Part shown: one piece after another, positions 1-6,150 of the stretch
Layout: each line of letters begins with the position of its first letter
How positions within the stretch are numbered: position 1 is the first letter of the stretch
IMG/VR virus record: IMGVR_UViG_2681813261_000025
Span: 1-6,641 of that record
Length of the DNA stretch: 6,641 nucleotides
Strand: one strand, 5' to 3'
DNA from: a virus
Lineage: Duplodnaviria; Heunggongvirae; Uroviricota; Caudoviricetes
Program-made: the position numbers and the translations under genes
Notes under the pieces: model-generated
Databases searched by the model: none
Told to the model about the DNA's origin: nothing
Seen by the model: only the letters and a program-made list of their open reading frames with translations

Positions 1-83
1 GCTCTACACTTTGAGCCTGTTAAATTGATTAAAAACTTATGTGTAAAATAGAACGCATTAGTCAGTAGCAAAGAGATGCAATA

Positions 84-876
84 ATGGACGATTTATCGGT
101 ATACGCGAGATCATTGGATAAGGCTAAATACTATGTTTACTGTCTCTATGATANNNNNNNNNNNNNNNNNNNNNGATACAGAAGACAAGATGAAAAGACC
201 GTTTTACATAGGAAAAGGCAAATCGACTCGTTGTCTCGATCACATCAAGTATCCCGATGACTCTCCCAAATCCATGCGGATCAAAGAACTTTTGGCTAAT
301 AAAAAATTAGGCATAGATATACTTCGTCATGGTATGGATGAAACCACAGCCAAACTTGTTGAGGCGACATGCATCGACCTTATGGGGGTCGGAGAGCTTA
401 CGAATAAGGTACGAGGAAGTGGTTCCATGATGGGCAGAATATCACTGGACGCCTACCATCACTTAGTGCTGCAAGAGGAAACTGAAATTGCTCCTGAGCA
501 CGCCGGTCTTGCCTTCCTGCTAAACAGCACCTACAAGTCAGGAATGTCCGCTCTGGCATTATATGAAGCTACGCGTGGCGTATGGGCAAAGGTTCCAAGA
601 GACGAGAATCTCAAATATGCCTACGCTACATATGGTGGGCTGATAATGGAAGTTTATCAGATTGAATGCTGGGTCAAAGCCGGTTCTCAGCAGTACTTTA
701 CAAGGGATATAGCTCTTGGCCCCGACACAAAACGTTATGAATTTGTTGGCAGAATAGCCGATGAGCATATTAGAAAACTGTATGTAGGCAAATTAATCAA
801 GAAGCCACCAAGCTACGGTAGCCCTTTTGTGAAGGTTGGGGTGGTTAGGACTGAACATAGTGTTAGCGCGGCATAA
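84..876 (+). CDS. GIY-YIG nuclease-domain protein with an unassigned ~180-aa C-terminal domain; the ORF is broken by the N-run and the frame differs on either side of it
   Basis: The ORF track calls 133..876. Upstream, the ATG at 84 opens a different frame reading MDDLSVYARSLDKAKYYVYCLYD up to the N-run, where YVYCLY looks like the GIY half-motif. After the gap the track frame reads RPFYIGKGKSTRCLDH, matching the YIG-x-x-K...R...H half of a GIY-YIG core. The two halves only join if the true gap length is not 21 nt, so the 5' boundary and exact length are uncertain. A hairpin terminator follows the stop. Confidence 0.5.
154..174. other. Run of 21 N (assembly gap or masked bases) inside the GIY-YIG ORF
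   Basis: Literal n characters at 154..174. The reading frame that carries the protein motifs changes across the run, so the run does not represent the true number of bases. Confidence 0.95.
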
Positions 877-892
877 AGCTGACACTGTAGTT

Positions 893-930
893 ATGCATTG
901 GCGCAATGTACGCGCCAATGCATGATTTTT
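893..930 (+). terminator. Rho-independent terminator between the convergent GIY-YIG gene and the par operon
   Basis: Perfect 12-bp stem ATGCATTGGCGC (893..904) / GCGCCAATGCAT (912..923) with a 7-nt loop, followed by GATTTTT (924..930). It lies 17 nt after the stop at 876 and overlaps the parB stop codon. Confidence 0.6.
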
Positions 931-1288
931 AACCTTTCTTCATCAACTCTCGTTTGATTTCATCGGTACGCATCGTGACATCGGCAGCGGTGATCGCCTC
1001 ATTCAATTTCACGATGTCCTCGATTTCCTGCGGTGACTTCTCTGCCAGATGGAAAATGGCTGCTCGAATCACGTCAGAACGAGTGAACTTCTCGAAGCGA
1101 GGGATGAACTTCATCATCTCCAGCAGTTCGAAGTATTCGTCCTCCAGTGACATTGTGCGGCTTTTAATTTTCTCTTTGCCACGAGTCGGGCGTCCCTGTG
1201 GTCTGACTGGTTGGCGCAAAGGAGTTGTGTTCTTAGCCGGTGCATCAGGCTCTTTGCGCTTTGCTAGGTCACCCATTTTCATGGACAT
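929..1288 (-). CDS. Small partition protein (putative centromere-binding ParB/ParG-like partner of the ParA ATPase)
   Basis: 119-aa ORF directly downstream of parA, with its ATG overlapping the parA stop (TAATG at 1286..1290 on the - strand), implying translational coupling. It has a basic Arg/Lys/Pro-rich N-terminal tail (RQPVRPQGRPTRGKEK) followed by a short helical region, the architecture expected of small type Ib centromere-binding proteins. Assignment is by context and composition, not a specific motif. Confidence 0.55.
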   Translation of the reverse strand: MSMKMGDLAKRKEPDAPAKNTTPLRQPVRPQGRPTRGKEKIKSRTMSLEDEYFELLEMMKFIPRFEKFTRSDVIRAAIFHLAEKSPQEIEDIVKLNEAITAADVTMRTDEIKRELMKKG

Positions 1289-1956
1289 TATTCTTCTTCC
1301 TCCAGACTCAACAGATAATCTACAAATTCTTCAAACTCGGCTTCCGCCTTTTTGTCGCGCTCGCTACCGGTCATTTCAAAGATAGAACGACCAGACTCTT
1401 CCGCATCATCATAGACGTTGCGGTTATACAGATTGACTGGCGCAGACTCGATTCCAAACGTCTCAACAATCTCTTTAGCCGCCAGAATGCGAGACACTTG
1501 TGATGGCAAAGCCGGGCACTGGTTCATGACCGCGCGGACCTTCACTTTATCGTTTACATTGCGAACATTGTCGATAATAGGATCGATGTCACGTAAAGAT
1601 TTCAAATCACGACGCTTAGGACGCAGCGGGATAATGATAACGTCAGCCATCAGCATCGCTTGTCGCTGAATTTCGGAGTCGAAGCCACCAGCATCTACCA
1701 CTACAAACTCAGCTCTACCCTGAAGCGATTTTAGGTGCTTAATGATGTCATCCTGAACGTATGCAAAAGGAATCAGCTCAAGGTCTTCGTTCTGTCGACG
1801 GTCTTCACACCAGCTCGTTGTCGTGCGCTGAATATCTATATCGGTAATATAAACCTTCTTCTTCTTTTTGACTTTCAGGCAAACGGCAATTTGCTGGGCA
1901 ACGGTGGATTTGCCAGGCCCGCCCTTTGTGCCGCCAACCACAAAGATCTTGGTCAT
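1288..1956 (-). CDS. parA: ParA/ParF-family partition ATPase (small type Ib ParA)
   Basis: 222-aa ORF with an N-terminal deviant Walker A motif, VVGGTKGGPGKST (KGGxGK[ST]), and a hydrophobic VVVDAGG Walker B-like stretch. Its size fits the small type Ib ParA proteins. A Shine-Dalgarno-like AAGGGA lies about 9 nt upstream of the ATG on the - strand. Confidence 0.85.
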   Translation of the reverse strand: MTKIFVVGGTKGGPGKSTVAQQIAVCLKVKKKKKVYITDIDIQRTTTSWCEDRRQNEDLELIPFAYVQDDIIKHLKSLQGRAEFVVVDAGGFDSEIQRQAMLMADVIIIPLRPKRRDLKSLRDIDPIIDNVRNVNDKVKVRAVMNQCPALPSQVSRILAAKEIVETFGIESAPVNLYNRNVYDDAEESGRSIFEMTGSERDKKAEAEFEEFVDYLLSLEEEE

Positions 1957-2274
1957 TGGAGAGTTCCCTTTGCGTATATAATTATCGTCTGAAACAACTT
2001 GTTTTCTTATATGTGATATAGCCTAAATGCCTACGGCTGCGGTGTAAAGGTTAAATGGTAGGTTGTGATTAACAATTGGCAATCATAGCTTGTATTTGTC
2101 TGTTGAAAAAAGTAACAATGACCTCTATATTACAAGTACGGTGATATGCCGTACACAATTTGATAATGCACACGTAATGGGCTATAGCCTTTTAAAGTAA
2201 TTTTTGAGTCGAAAACTCAGTTTGAACAGAGGAGATTGATGGCCTTCCTACATCACGGCCATCAGGAGGAATAC
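1957..2274. promoter_or_regulatory. Divergent control region between parA and the toxin-antitoxin operon; candidate par centromere/operator and TA operator
   Basis: 318-bp AT-rich intergenic region flanked by divergent start codons. It contains a perfect 10-bp palindrome GGCTATAGCC (2180..2189), an inverted repeat GTACGG-N7-CCGTAC (2136..2154), a small palindrome AAACTCAGTTT (2211..2221), and the recurring words GTGATAT (2013, 2141) and TATAGCC (2018, 2183). A weak sigma70-like candidate is TTGATA (2160..2165), 17-bp spacer, TATAGC (2183..2188), overlapping the palindrome. No transcription start can be determined from sequence. Confidence 0.35.
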
Positions 2275-2544
2275 ATGTCAGCACTAAAAAAGCAGCGCAT
2301 CGATTTGAGATTAACCGATGACGATAAAAGCATCATCGAGGAAGCTGCCGCAATGTCTAACCAGAGCATTACTCAGTTTATGGTTAGCAGTGCATCTGAA
2401 CGTGCCGTGAAAGTTATAGAGCAACACCGTAGACTAGTTCTGAATGAAGAATCCTGGAATCTGGTTATGGACGCTATAAGCAATCCTCCGGCACCGAACG
2501 ACAAGCTGAAACGAGCTGCTGATCGTCTGAAAAGCATGGAGTAG
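2275..2544 (+). CDS. ataR: DUF1778-type antitoxin partnering a GNAT toxin (AtaR/TacA/KacA family)
   Basis: The 89-aa product from the ATG at 2275 (MSALKKQRIDLRLTDDDK...NPPAPNDKLKRAADRL) has the length and N-terminal basic strand typical of this family, including a conserved-looking NPPAPN segment. A strong AGGAGG (2264..2269) sits 5 nt upstream. The ORF track's longer start at 2236/2239 has a poorer spacing. It lies immediately upstream of the GNAT toxin gene. The family call is firm; the specific symbol is by recalled similarity. Confidence 0.8.
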   Translation: MSALKKQRIDLRLTDDDKSIIEEAAAMSNQSITQFMVSSASERAVKVIEQHRRLVLNEESWNLVMDAISNPPAPNDKLKRAADRLKSME

Positions 2545-2551
2545 TTTACTC

Positions 2552-3073
2552 GTGAGCAATACAACGATAGAGATTTTCTCTGGAGAGAAAGATTATGATC
2601 TAAACGGTTTTGATTGCGGCGAAGAGTCACTAAACGCCTTTTTAGCCAACCACTTAAAAAGGCAGCATGAGGGAAAAATTCTTCGTGCTTATGTGCTTTG
2701 CACTCAAGAAGAAAGGCCAAAAGTGTTAGGATATTACACTTTGTCAGGTAGTTGTTTTGAAAAGGAGTCCTTACCTTCAAGAAGCAAACAAAAGAAGGTT
2801 CCTTATCGGAATGTTCCAAGTGTTACTTTGGGTAGGCTGGCTTTGGACAAGTCCCTTCAAGGTCAAGGATTTGGCTCAATGCTTGTAACACATGCAATGC
2901 GCGTTGTGTACAATGCATCTCTTGCTGTAGGCATTCATGGACTTTTCGTTGAGGCGTTAAATGACAAAGCCAAGGCGTTTTATAAAAGTTTAGGCTTTAT
3001 CCAGCTGGTTGGTAACAACGAGCGTTCTTTGTTCTATCCTACAAAATCTATCGAAAAATTGTTCGAAGAATAA
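2552..3073 (+). CDS. ataT: GNAT-family N-acetyltransferase toxin (AtaT/TacT/ItaT family, aminoacyl-tRNA acetylating)
   Basis: 173-aa ORF starting at GTG 2552, 7 nt after the antitoxin stop. The N-terminal DYDLNGFDCGEESLNAFL and the acetyl-CoA-binding-like RLALDKSLQGQGFGSML (Q/R-x-x-G-x-G/A pattern) are characteristic of GNAT toxins paired with DUF1778 antitoxins. The sequence closely resembles what I recall of E. coli AtaT; this was not verified by search. Confidence 0.85.
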   Translation: MSNTTIEIFSGEKDYDLNGFDCGEESLNAFLANHLKRQHEGKILRAYVLCTQEERPKVLGYYTLSGSCFEKESLPSRSKQKKVPYRNVPSVTLGRLALDKSLQGQGFGSMLVTHAMRVVYNASLAVGIHGLFVEALNDKAKAFYKSLGFIQLVGNNERSLFYPTKSIEKLFEE

Positions 3074-3105: not shown

Positions 3106-3321
3106 TCACCAACCACAAACCCTCTCTCCCATCGTATTGTGAAAAAGGATTTGGCGTTCGGTTTCTTCAGTCATTACATCATTATTGCTGATATAGATAG
3201 GCTCAGCCCCATCGCAGAACAACACGCTGGCTGTTTGTGGTTTAATGACGCACCCACTTATCATACAACTCACGATGAACGGCAGAAGCATCTTTCTGAC
3301 GTATTTTACTGCTCGTCTCAT
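3106..3321 (-). CDS. Putative outer-membrane lipoprotein, o-spanin-like (Rz1-like)
   Basis: 71-aa ORF with a basic n-region (MRRAVKYVRK), a hydrophobic h-region and a lipobox-like ISGC (signal peptidase II type). Its 5' end overlaps, out of frame, the 3' end of the upstream TM protein gene (3242..3321), as in overlapped spanin pairs. It is the last gene of the lysis-like cassette. Confidence 0.45.
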   Translation of the reverse strand: MRRAVKYVRKMLLPFIVSCMISGCVIKPQTASVLFCDGAEPIYISNNDVMTEETERQILFHNTMGERVCGW

Positions 3322-3493
3322 TCACCACTTTCACTGTGTTTTGAAGTCGTTTTCTGTCTTCCTGTTTTGCCTTCTCTTCCATTGCTCGTCGCGCCGCATT
3401 CCCGCCCATCGTGTAAGCGCCGACAAGAACGAAAAGAACGGCAGCCAGCGTAATCAAAGCAACTTTTAGCTTTGTCATCAGGCTGCCTAGCAT
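3242..3493 (-). CDS. Putative inner-membrane i-spanin-like protein (short; N-terminal TMD plus charged helical region)
   Basis: 83-aa ORF with an N-terminal transmembrane segment (LKVALITLAAVLFVLVGAYTM) followed by a highly charged probably helical region (RRAMEEKAKQEDRKRLQ). Its ATG lies 1 nt after the stop of the endolysin-like gene and its 3' end overlaps the lipoprotein ORF. It is shorter than classical Rz proteins, hence the low confidence. Confidence 0.4.
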   Translation of the reverse strand: MLGSLMTKLKVALITLAAVLFVLVGAYTMGGNAARRAMEEKAKQEDRKRLQNTVKVVNETSSKIRQKDASAVHRELYDKWVRH

Positions 3494-3494
3494 A

Positions 3495-4187
3495 TTAGAC
3501 CATCCCTTTCTGGTGTTTTCTTACCTGCGACCAGGCAATGAATCCTGCCACAACAATAGTGGCAATACCGAAGATGATGCGTACTGTATCCCCGCTAGAG
3601 ATATGACCTTGTGCTTTATCCATAGCAGCGGAAACCTGCGGCATAACATCGGCCAGCTGCGCCAGACCAATACCTGCTGTAACAGTTGCGCCTGCGGTTT
3701 CTTTAGTTACAGGAACAGCCTTCACGGTTTTCACCGGCTTAACAACGCCAGCTCGACGCAGACCTTCCTCAATAACTTCTGCCGCATACCAGGTGTTCAG
3801 CGTTTTTAGCGGGCCTCGGCCATTCTCGTGGCGAATGATTGCCTCAACCAAAGGTCGAAGGATGTCGTAATCATGCAGATCGATGATCATGTCTGCGGTT
3901 ACACCAACGGCTTTAGACACCTCATTAATGTAGGCGTCAGTATTGTTTTCATTCGGCGGTGCCCAGCGTTCAATAACTTCACGAATGGTATCGATACTTG
4001 TGCCGTCTTTTGCGCGACGTTTATCGTGGTAGGTAATTAGAGTCACCGCCAGCGCACGAATCCCCCAAACAGGGTCTTTAAACGTGCAAAAGCGCGGTTC
4101 GTCTGGATTCGCAACCAGACCTTGCCACGGTGATCCTTTATCAAGATTACCGGGGTTATTATTACGAATGCCTCTCGGAGTCTTCAT
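3495..4187 (-). CDS. Putative endolysin-like lysis protein of unrecognised catalytic family, with a C-terminal transmembrane anchor
   Basis: The ATG at 4187 is preceded by AGGAG about 7 nt upstream; the ORF track's GTG start at 4214 adds 9 residues. The product begins MKTPRGIRNNNPGNLDKG, has acidic conserved-looking stretches, and ends in a single hydrophobic segment (IIFGIATIVVAGFIAW). Its position between a small membrane protein and a spanin-like pair suggests the muralytic role, but I cannot match a catalytic motif (lysozyme, transglycosylase, amidase, M15, CHAP). Confidence 0.4.
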   Translation of the reverse strand: MKTPRGIRNNNPGNLDKGSPWQGLVANPDEPRFCTFKDPVWGIRALAVTLITYHDKRRAKDGTSIDTIREVIERWAPPNENNTDAYINEVSKAVGVTADMIIDLHDYDILRPLVEAIIRHENGRGPLKTLNTWYAAEVIEEGLRRAGVVKPVKTVKAVPVTKETAGATVTAGIGLAQLADVMPQVSAAMDKAQGHISSGDTVRIIFGIATIVVAGFIAWSQVRKHQKGMV

Positions 4188-4200
4188 CCTTGATCTCCTG

Positions 4201-4524
4201 TTATTGCAGTCCACTTTTTACGCCATACGCGGCTAACCCCAAAAGCAGTGCGGTAATAATGAACGACGTTATTTTAGAAACAATGCCGCCAAAGAACCCA
4301 CTTGAGATGGAATCTAACCGGTTAAGGAGTTTGTCCAGATTGGAGTGTTGAATACTATGTTGCGCCGGGGTCATATCACCAAAGTAGGTTTTCAGCTGAT
4401 CATTGACCTCCTGGCCAATTTCTTCACGTAGCTCTTTACCTAATTTGCCAACAACCTCCCGAGCAACGATCGCGGCAATACGCTCAACTTGCTCTGTTGT
4501 AACGCCCGCCATCTCGTTCGACAT
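4201..4524 (-). CDS. Small tail-anchored membrane protein, holin-like by position (first gene of the lysis-like cassette)
   Basis: The second in-frame ATG at 4524 has an excellent RBS (GGAGGA, 5-nt spacer), so the first ATG at 4536 is unlikely to be used. The product has a ~75-aa hydrophilic N-terminal part and one C-terminal TMD (FFGGIVSKITSFIITALLLGLAAYGV). This topology is atypical for canonical holins, so the functional call is tentative. Confidence 0.4.
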   Translation of the reverse strand: MSNEMAGVTTEQVERIAAIVAREVVGKLGKELREEIGQEVNDQLKTYFGDMTPAQHSIQHSNLDKLLNRLDSISSGFFGGIVSKITSFIITALLLGLAAYGVKSGLQ

Positions 4525-5247: not shown

Positions 5248-6150
5248 CTACTTAATATCAAAGACAGTATGTTGTTTATTGAGTGTATGGGTGTGAGCAC
5301 CAACAGTGATGCCCCTTCCGTGATTATATGCGCCAGTGGCGATATTGCCTCCGGTATTTTCCGGATTAATCCGGTGTATATGCGAACCAGGGCGAAACCG
5401 GTTATTAGCCTGATGTTGTATCAGTACATCATCAGCCTGATGTTCAGGGTTAATACAGATCTGCCCTGAACGTGAGCAATACGTCCGATAATCGCCGCAT
5501 CCAATATATTTAGTATCCGCATAACGGCAAACAGAATTACCCGGACAGTATGCATATGTGCCAAATACTGCCGACTGGCGGGAGTGTGCGTATTCCCAGT
5601 TAATTGCTTCTGTTTTTTTATTAAAGTTATCCCACGCCTGCTTCATCTGCCGGGCAACGCTTTCAAACGGAACCTGACCACATCCGGCCCCCATTGCAGG
5701 GAATACCACCGTCTTTATTTTCCTGTCTGTCGTTGCGTTTTTATTGTGCTGAAAGATGGCAAGTAAAGCGGCCCAGGTTGCGTTATATACAGAGTCTGTT
5801 CCGTCAATTGTCAGCGGAACACGCATTGTTGGCGCATGTACCAGCCAGGGGTGATGATTATGCCCCGTTTCAATAACAAATGCAGAACCTACAGGCTGCT
5901 CGCCTAGATATTCACGAAGAATATGATTCTGAACGCGGGACTGTAACTGAGTACCGAAGAATGCGGTAATGGCGGCATCAACGCCGCCATCCATCAGGCC
6001 GAAACTATTTGCCGCACTTACCATGCAGTCAAATTCTCTGATTGTTTCAAATGGCTTTCCGACAATATTCACATTATCTGCGTTTGCAAATACCCGCTTA
6101 AATGCTTCAGCCATTTCTGTTACTGGTGCAGAAAGAATGAGCGTAATCAT
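5248..6150 (-). CDS. Macro-domain (ADP-ribose binding/hydrolase-like) protein fused to a Cys/His-rich tail-fibre-repeat-like C-terminal module
   Basis: 300-aa ORF whose ATG overlaps the tail-fibre stop (ATGA at 6147..6150), with GAGG 7 nt upstream. The N-terminal ~185 aa carry macro-domain motifs: [21 protein letters not shown] (compare the canonical xxVNAAN...GGGGVDGAI), [20 protein letters not shown], and [14 protein letters not shown] (compare AFPxISTGxYGxP). The C-terminal ~110 aa have six Cys ([10 protein letters not shown]...[16 protein letters not shown]) and GSHIHRI / GAHTHTL repeats of the same GxHxH type as the adjacent tail fibre. The ORF ends 8 nt before tfa. Confidence 0.8.

Follow-up and report, generated by a model that had tools for sequence, protein, structure and literature searches.

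The interrupted nuclease gene

The DNA analysed here, hereafter the window, is a stretch of 6,641 nucleotides (IMG/VR virus record IMGVR_UViG_2681813261_000025) that corresponds to the reverse complement of the entire contig CXEK01000195.1 (6641 bp) of the Shigella sonnei draft assembly GCA_001248175.1, and which represents a piece of an SSU5-like phage-plasmid. Its left end harbours, on the plus strand, a nuclease gene (positions 84-876) that can be assigned by its sequence to the PD-T4-3/CMoRE family, and that has been deposited in two pieces. The 5′ piece (84..153) starts with an ATG at 84 and contains codons 1-23 plus the first base of codon 24; its open reading frame (84..152, 84 mod 3 = 0) encodes MDDLSVYARSLDKAKYYVYCLYD and carries the 'GIYxY' half of the nuclease motif, with Y17 and Y19 in KYYVYCLY. 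The 3′ piece (175..876, 175 mod 3 = 1) comprises 233 codons and a stop codon (874..876), reads DTEDKMKRPFYIGKGKSTRCLDH...SAA*, and contains FYIGKGK. This piece of 233 amino acids is named WP_252716188.1, 'LEM-3-like GIY-YIG domain-containing protein, partial [Shigella sonnei]', at NCBI. Between both pieces lie exactly 21 N (154..174), the single N-run of the window, already present in the deposited record CXEK01000195.1. A previous sequence-only reading of this DNA had noticed the 21 N and the two halves of the motif in different frames, as the list of open reading frames confirms (frames 0 vs 1), and had proposed that the N-run hides an indel-scale uncertainty behind the frame change.

Alignment with the Escherichia coli plasmid p4_0.2 and the phage PhiR41_1 revealed the size of this uncertainty. 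The relatives read ...CTCTAT GATA CAGAAG... without interruption, and the window reads ...CTCTAT GATA [21 N] GATA CAGAAG..., where the run of N matches no bases in any relative and the second GATA copy (175..178) indicates an overlap of 4 bp between the edges of the gap with respect to the true sequence. The same overlap of 4 between the left and right flanks was observed in two other related loci (L029 and L031). The window has an excess of 25 positions (21 N plus the extra GATA), and since 25 mod 3 = 1, the reading frame shifts by +1, which bears out the proposed indel-scale uncertainty. Removal of 154..178 joins both frames in an open gene of 768 bp, with the restored junction CTCTATGATACAGAAG, and the DNA of this gene shows 100% identity with its intact p4_0.2 counterpart (WP_000342417.1, 255 amino acids); the DNA of the 5′ piece is also 100% identical to that of a related locus (L001:6084-6153). 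The two frames can thus be joined, the protein is somewhat shorter than the approximately 265 residues formerly suggested, and, of the two options left by the sequence-only reading, an intact gene or a frameshifted pseudogene, the identity obtained after deleting 25 bp largely supports the former.

Judged against the intact relatives, the N-run conceals no missing residues. As the window is a whole contig of GCA_001248175.1, the N-run is part of a draft assembly that is fragmented, and overlapping edges at gaps are a common leftover of scaffolding and gap-filling pipelines. Most likely, the N-run marks a scaffold gap that was left unclosed, with the same 4 bp (GATA) on both edges; the frame change is then not biological, and the gene would be intact in this particular isolate. 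Our overall reading, held with good confidence, is that the locus carries an accessory PD-T4-3/CMoRE defence gene of an S. sonnei SSU5-like phage-plasmid, and that its frame change is an artefact of the scaffold gap.

Family membership and predicted activity

The restored protein matches the PADLOC profile PDLC04031 (PD-T4-3) with an E-value of 1.3e-23 and 81.9 bits, from residues 11-231 to positions 11-238 of the 256 in the profile. In Pfam, the model PF22945 (LEM-3_GIY-YIG) covers residues 32-104 with 30.1 bits (cut-off, 27), in agreement with the GIY-YIG nuclease that had been read from the sequence, and no other domain was found in the protein. NCBIfam holds no model for it, and PHROG places it in a family (5356) of unassigned function. 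A phmmer sequence search of the PDB recovered only CMoRE chains (9u7u and 9u75, E = 2e-15), in an alignment that covers both domains; BLASTP against CMoRE showed 32% identity over 236 columns, and the hhalign comparison between the profile of a subfamily of 37 sequences and CMoRE gave a probability of 99.3% (E = 3e-20). The CMoRE references were the proteins of E. coli O157:H7 (WP_000355475.1) and APEC O1 (WP_000353910.1), together with the PDB entries 9U75, 9U7U, 9U7Z and 9U8D. These comparisons establish at the sequence level that the gene belongs to the PD-T4-3/CMoRE family.

The catalytic residues are conserved just as clearly. The stretch encoded at 117..420 (plus strand) contains Y17, Y19, Y33 (of YIG), R41, H45, E85 and N99, together with a short α2-α3 loop, and presents a 'GIYxY-YIG' motif with the third tyrosine (Y17, Y19, Y33). 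Residues Y17, Y19, Y33, R41, E85 and N99 align with Y17, Y19, Y31, R39, E93 and N105 of CMoRE, and are invariant in the 37 homologues (50-78% identity). The mutationally validated catalytic residues of CMoRE are all kept (Y17, Y19, Y31 as Y33, R39 as R41 and E93 as E85). The rest of the protein, which had been described as an unrecognisable C-terminal domain of some 180 residues, is actually shorter (about 150 residues, ~105-255), and both profile and sequence searches identify it with the modification-sensing domain of CMoRE. The homologous region encompasses residues ~113-245 (445..843, plus strand) and corresponds to the modified-cytosine sensor of CMoRE, with residues H131, N139, R156, W159, W188, R209, F212, G214 and Y225 common to both subfamilies. 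The protein thus has a two-domain architecture in which both halves are homologous to the solved CMoRE structures.

PD-T4-3 is active against Tevenvirinae in its native host, and has been recently characterised and renamed as CMoRE, a single-gene type IV restriction endonuclease made of an N-terminal GIYxY-YIG nuclease and a C-terminal sensor (Liu et al. 2026, PMC12923530). CMoRE binds and cuts DNA with 5-hydroxymethylcytosine (5hmC) or glucosyl-5hmC, sparing DNA with either cytosine or 5-methylcytosine, and its activity is graded on different cytosine adducts. The cut position (CN11/N9G) leaves 2-nt 3′ overhangs, the active form is a tetramer (dimer of dimers) whose interface includes V92 and L96, and the enzyme shields cells against T2, T4 and T6 through direct defence (PMC12923530). 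By homology, the C-terminal domain encoded in the window would bind phage DNA with hydroxymethylated or glucosyl-hydroxymethylated cytosines of the T-even type, and the N-terminal GIYxY-YIG nuclease would then cleave this modified DNA. Unmodified DNA of the host and the plasmid would be spared, and protection would follow from direct defence and not from abortive infection. Both the enzymatic activity and the modification recognised are what we infer from the family, and should be regarded as predictions.

Several features are shared with CMoRE: the system is a single gene of similar length (255 amino acids here, 262-residue solved chains for CMoRE), the N-terminal GIYxY-YIG nuclease is followed by a homologous C-terminal sensor domain, and, at the dimer interface, V92 is kept as V84. 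On the other hand, L96 is changed to C88, which is still hydrophobic, the 4-residue insertion HVIH of CMoRE is absent from the window protein, an extra conserved C-terminal tail (KKxRSxGSPFVxVG) is present in it, and the gene is carried by a phage-plasmid. A second case is the PD-T4-3Capno protein of Capnocytophaga, 48% identical, which degrades the DNA of T4 but not that of T4-GT7, with Mu DNA as an additional substrate (Rodriguez-Rodriguez et al. 2025, PMC12366544). Like the protein of the window, it is a diverged PD-T4-3 homologue, and its behaviour as a modification-dependent nuclease indicates that function survives large sequence divergence; unlike the window protein, which is read from sequence, it was shown to cut the carbamoylmethyl-adenine DNA of Mu. 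More distant parallels are VcaM4I (EVE-HNH), PvuRts1I, MspJI and McrB-N/McrC, type IV modification-dependent enzymes also built from a reader and a nuclease, whose nucleases show either the HNH or the PD-(D/E)xK fold instead of GIY-YIG, and whose readers are only weakly similar.

Some observations weigh against a simple transfer of the CMoRE function. Identity to the characterised enzymes is just 32%, and the global TM-score against the crystal structures is low (0.35-0.39), which we interpret as a different orientation of the two domains across a flexible, low-confidence linker. The α2-α3 loop (K47-S52, YPDDS) is 5 residues shorter than in CMoRE, and has PDDS where CMoRE has DDDE or DDDD. In a poorly aligned linker, V120 is aligned with Y127, a residue of CMoRE whose main-chain oxygen contacts 5hmC. 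With regard to expression, a consensus scan of positions 1..1000 detected no promoter-like site in the 83 bp of upstream sequence kept on the contig, which represent 83 of the ~282 intergenic bases. Finally, this isolate could truly contain 25 additional bp, by insertion or duplication, an improbable objection that is treated below.

The low identity, the shorter and less acidic loop and the change from Y127 to V120 imply that the substrate range and the regulation of the protein could differ from those of CMoRE. The autoinhibitory loop of CMoRE is negatively charged, with 15 residues and four consecutive acidic positions, and 'most' family members are reported to have such a loop (PMC12923530). 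As the authors say only 'most', a short loop does not exclude membership; in the subfamily of the window, the loop has 2-4 scattered acidic residues per member. An alternative would be an enzyme of the same family with another specificity or regulation, such as recognition of Mu-type modified adenine or of arabinosyl-hydroxymethylcytosine, or a different safeguard against self-cleavage. The loop and the divergence of the sensor domain are consistent with this possibility, as are the broadened range of PD-T4-3Capno and the graded response of CMoRE to cytosine adducts. However, many residues of the sensor domain are common to both subfamilies and nothing points positively to a changed specificity, so that this alternative seems unlikely. 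In a reading that is likewise of low probability, the subfamily might have a different substrate spectrum or form of self-protection and, separately, the sensor of the family might be a highly diverged PUA-like reader (EVE/YTH/ASCH). The idea of a divergent PUA-like barrel, which is possibly correct, comes from a weak structural hint, and is contrary to the published description of the sensor as a 'distinct fold', for which its authors report no similarity to known readers (PMC12923530). If true, a PUA-like sensor would connect CMoRE with the principal lineage of readers of modified bases in type IV restriction systems.

The junction in related elements

The preferred explanation of the N-run, an unclosed gap in an otherwise intact PD-T4-3/CMoRE gene, was examined in a broad set of relatives. 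A megablast search with positions 1..1300 retrieved 135 plasmids, along with 2 phage records, that match at least 80% of the query, with 96 of the plasmids at 99% identity or higher. Each of the matches listed aligns 1275 bases of the record to 1300 of the window, and the nuclease gene is intact in over 100 near-identical SSU5-like phage-plasmids. The junction is uninterrupted in all 30 of the other related loci inspected, which comprise 25 IMG/VR contigs, 3 annotated records, a 109-kb S. sonnei phage-plasmid contig and one contig from Logan. Scans of the viral_contigs and genome_contigs collections gave no match to alleles with 1-30 nt between two GATA copies, nor to alleles whose GATACAG is preceded by anything but T; the absence of the source record from the GATA-pattern scan is uninformative, as an N in the pattern may not match a literal N of the collections. 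Two of the related loci (L029 and L031), which also carry a rare macro-domain protein described below, have an intact nuclease gene and differ from the window at 36 positions, and therefore represent other isolates.

The best alternative for the frame change is that the gene is truly disrupted in this isolate, with the 21 N standing for real sequence, so that the result would be a frameshifted pseudogene. The deposited flanks are indeed out of frame, a 25-bp tandem duplication starting or ending at GATA would yield exactly GATA-[21 nt]-GATA, and pseudogenes are numerous in S. sonnei genomes. However, beyond the 25 positions the gene has 100% DNA identity with intact copies, and no such allele was found either in the viral and genome collections scanned or among the 30 relatives fetched. 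The assembly itself is a fragmented draft in which an element of 110 kb is split in pieces as small as 6.6 kb, a context where unclosed scaffold gaps are routine. A true disruption can thus be regarded as improbable.

Another alternative is an insertion sequence (IS) flanked by a 4-bp target duplication (GATA) inside the gene, which the assembler would have collapsed into the N-run. The direct repeat around the gap resembles a target-site duplication, IS elements are abundant in S. sonnei, and a related plasmid, pRM9975-1, has an IS1203 nearby. This IS1203, the only IS seen in a related plasmid, is located between parA and the DUF1778 gene and outside the nuclease gene, and an insertion at GATA was rejected for this reason. 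Moreover, no bases of an IS end adjoin the N-run, De Bruijn contigs would normally retain k-1 bases of a repeat, and a gap estimate of 21 would imply that read pairs bridge the site at a near-contiguous distance. Although three contigs from Logan start no more than 2 nt from the junction, contig ends are no commoner at the junction codon than at control codons: for the three codons that follow and two remote ones, partial products beginning there were found in 3, 9, 3, 3 and 0 contigs. These starts are, given such counts, ordinary random contig ends, and a recurrent assembly break hotspot at the junction was rejected. A hidden IS is therefore highly improbable.

Some other details of the contig ends may be mentioned. 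At position 181 (codon E25 of the restored protein), slightly downstream of the N-run, contig ends are mildly in excess: nine contigs begin within the 3 nt that precede this codon, compared with 0-3 for each of five others. One Logan contig (SRR18173594 contig 7909, L033:1) has as its first base an A directly before GATACAG, in place of the T common to all intact relatives, and this A is probably a contig-tip error. A likeness of the native upstream sequence CTGTCTCT to the Nextera adaptor (in its first 8 nt), considered as a cause of the break, amounted to 12 matches in 19 ungapped bases and was not relied on.

Genomic surroundings and significance

A stem-loop followed by a U-run (889..935, plus strand) lies directly 3′ of the stop codon of the nuclease gene, between this gene and a convergent parB-like gene. 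Its predicted folding energy is -25.1 kcal/mol (z = -4.56), with none of 200 shuffled sequences being as stable, and it probably serves this gene as an intrinsic terminator, even if a scan of positions 1..1000 with a simple terminator consensus called none, this hairpin included. The comparison of the window with L029 and L031 (35 mismatches across the ~6 kb that follow the N-run) places 8 of the first ten listed mismatches in the hairpin region (878..908), where plasmid p4_0.2 is identical to the window, which suggests a small recombination patch or alternative alleles of the hairpin.

Downstream of the terminator, the parB-like gene (929..1288, minus strand) and parA occupy positions 929..1956, followed by a TacA/TacT-type toxin-antitoxin pair (2236..3073), the holin, endolysin and spanin genes (3242..4524) and, from 4658 on, tail-fibre assembly, macro-domain and tail-fibre genes. 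The pair adjoining parA is composed of a DUF1778 protein (a TacA-like antitoxin) and a GNAT acetyltransferase (a TacT/KacT-like toxin). At the equivalent position, PhiR41_1 has two hypothetical genes (L002:8094-9269) that are unrelated and match nothing in Pfam or PADLOC, and the position next to parA is a second variable cargo slot. The macro-domain protein (PF01661, called 'RNase III inhibitor' in some sources; 300 amino acids, 5248..6150, minus strand) is encoded between the tail-fibre and the tail-fibre-assembly genes, and its C-terminal part shows AHTH-type repeats similar to those of the adjacent fibre gene. With 4 recorded contigs, this precise allele is a rare one, and a macro domain within a tail-fibre locus is unusual; this protein could have either an ADP-ribose-related counter-defence function or one associated with the fibre.

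In intact relatives, the nuclease gene is found between the replication module (primase and DnaB-like helicase) and parAB. Both SSU5 and Cyrano lack the gene, and the same slot, equivalent to positions 1..928 of the window, holds in them a DUF2971 protein encoded on the opposite strand (SSU5_037, L053:3085-3843; CYRAN_30, L054:4199-5002). These DUF2971 proteins match the PADLOC candidate system PDC-S31 (E-values of 2e-33 and 3e-41), and this slot looks like an exchangeable hotspot of defence cargo in SSU5-like phage-plasmids. The neighbours of the nuclease gene in the phage-plasmid are completely different from those of its more distant homologues in Providencia, in Shewanella and in a third chromosomal locus, which also differ among themselves. 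As these neighbours are unrelated to one another, the nuclease has no partner gene. One distant homologue (P0051, L058:2691-4928) is directly downstream of two tandem genes with RelA/SpoT domains and near an IS110 transposase, a setting that might represent a small defence island containing toxins of the alarmone-synthetase type.

The sequence-only reading had left open whether the nuclease is a homing endonuclease or an effector of defence or anti-defence, and had suggested a comparison of elements with and without the gene; the homology to PD-T4-3/CMoRE favours defence, and homing loses ground in that same comparison. A free-standing GIY-YIG homing endonuclease would spread by cutting gene-less elements, but the supposedly 'empty' alleles of SSU5 and Cyrano are occupied by another candidate defence gene in the opposite orientation, and homing is disfavoured because the slot behaves as a hotspot of defence cargo. 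Unlike the I-TevI and Seg homing endonucleases and the EndoII of T4, the window protein shows no NUMOD, helix-turn-helix (HTH) or zinc finger, nor any intron or homing context. In particular, the Pfam search found no NUMOD, IENR1, HTH or zinc-finger region in the nuclease, whose C-terminal half is the CMoRE sensor domain instead of a DNA-binding module of these types. Modification-dependent restriction has been demonstrated for the family, its homologues occur in unrelated chromosomal contexts across many genera, and homing can be set aside as the remotest of the readings considered.

The family is biochemically and structurally characterised and is labelled by current defence-finding tools, so that this type of gene is already known. 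PD-T4-3 has already been listed in SSU5-group phage-plasmids of E. coli and Shigella (2025 preprint, bioRxiv 10.1101/2025.09.12.675607), and the finding carries little weight as a discovery. Its value lies in annotation: RefSeq describes the product as either a 'hypothetical protein' or a 'LEM-3-like GIY-YIG domain-containing protein', 'partial' in the draft genome, and we suggest an intact PD-T4-3/CMoRE-family type IV restriction endonuclease, with the frame change flagged as a scaffold-gap artefact. The remaining interest resides in the diverged subfamily, with its short loop and 32% identity, and in the weak hint of a PUA-like structure. The divergent loop is a natural variant that bears on the charge-repulsion safety catch proposed for these enzymes. 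With respect to the biology of the host, a temperate phage-plasmid that is common in epidemic lineages of S. sonnei and E. coli would give its host a predicted immunity against T-even phages, which may be relevant to phage therapy with T4-like phages.
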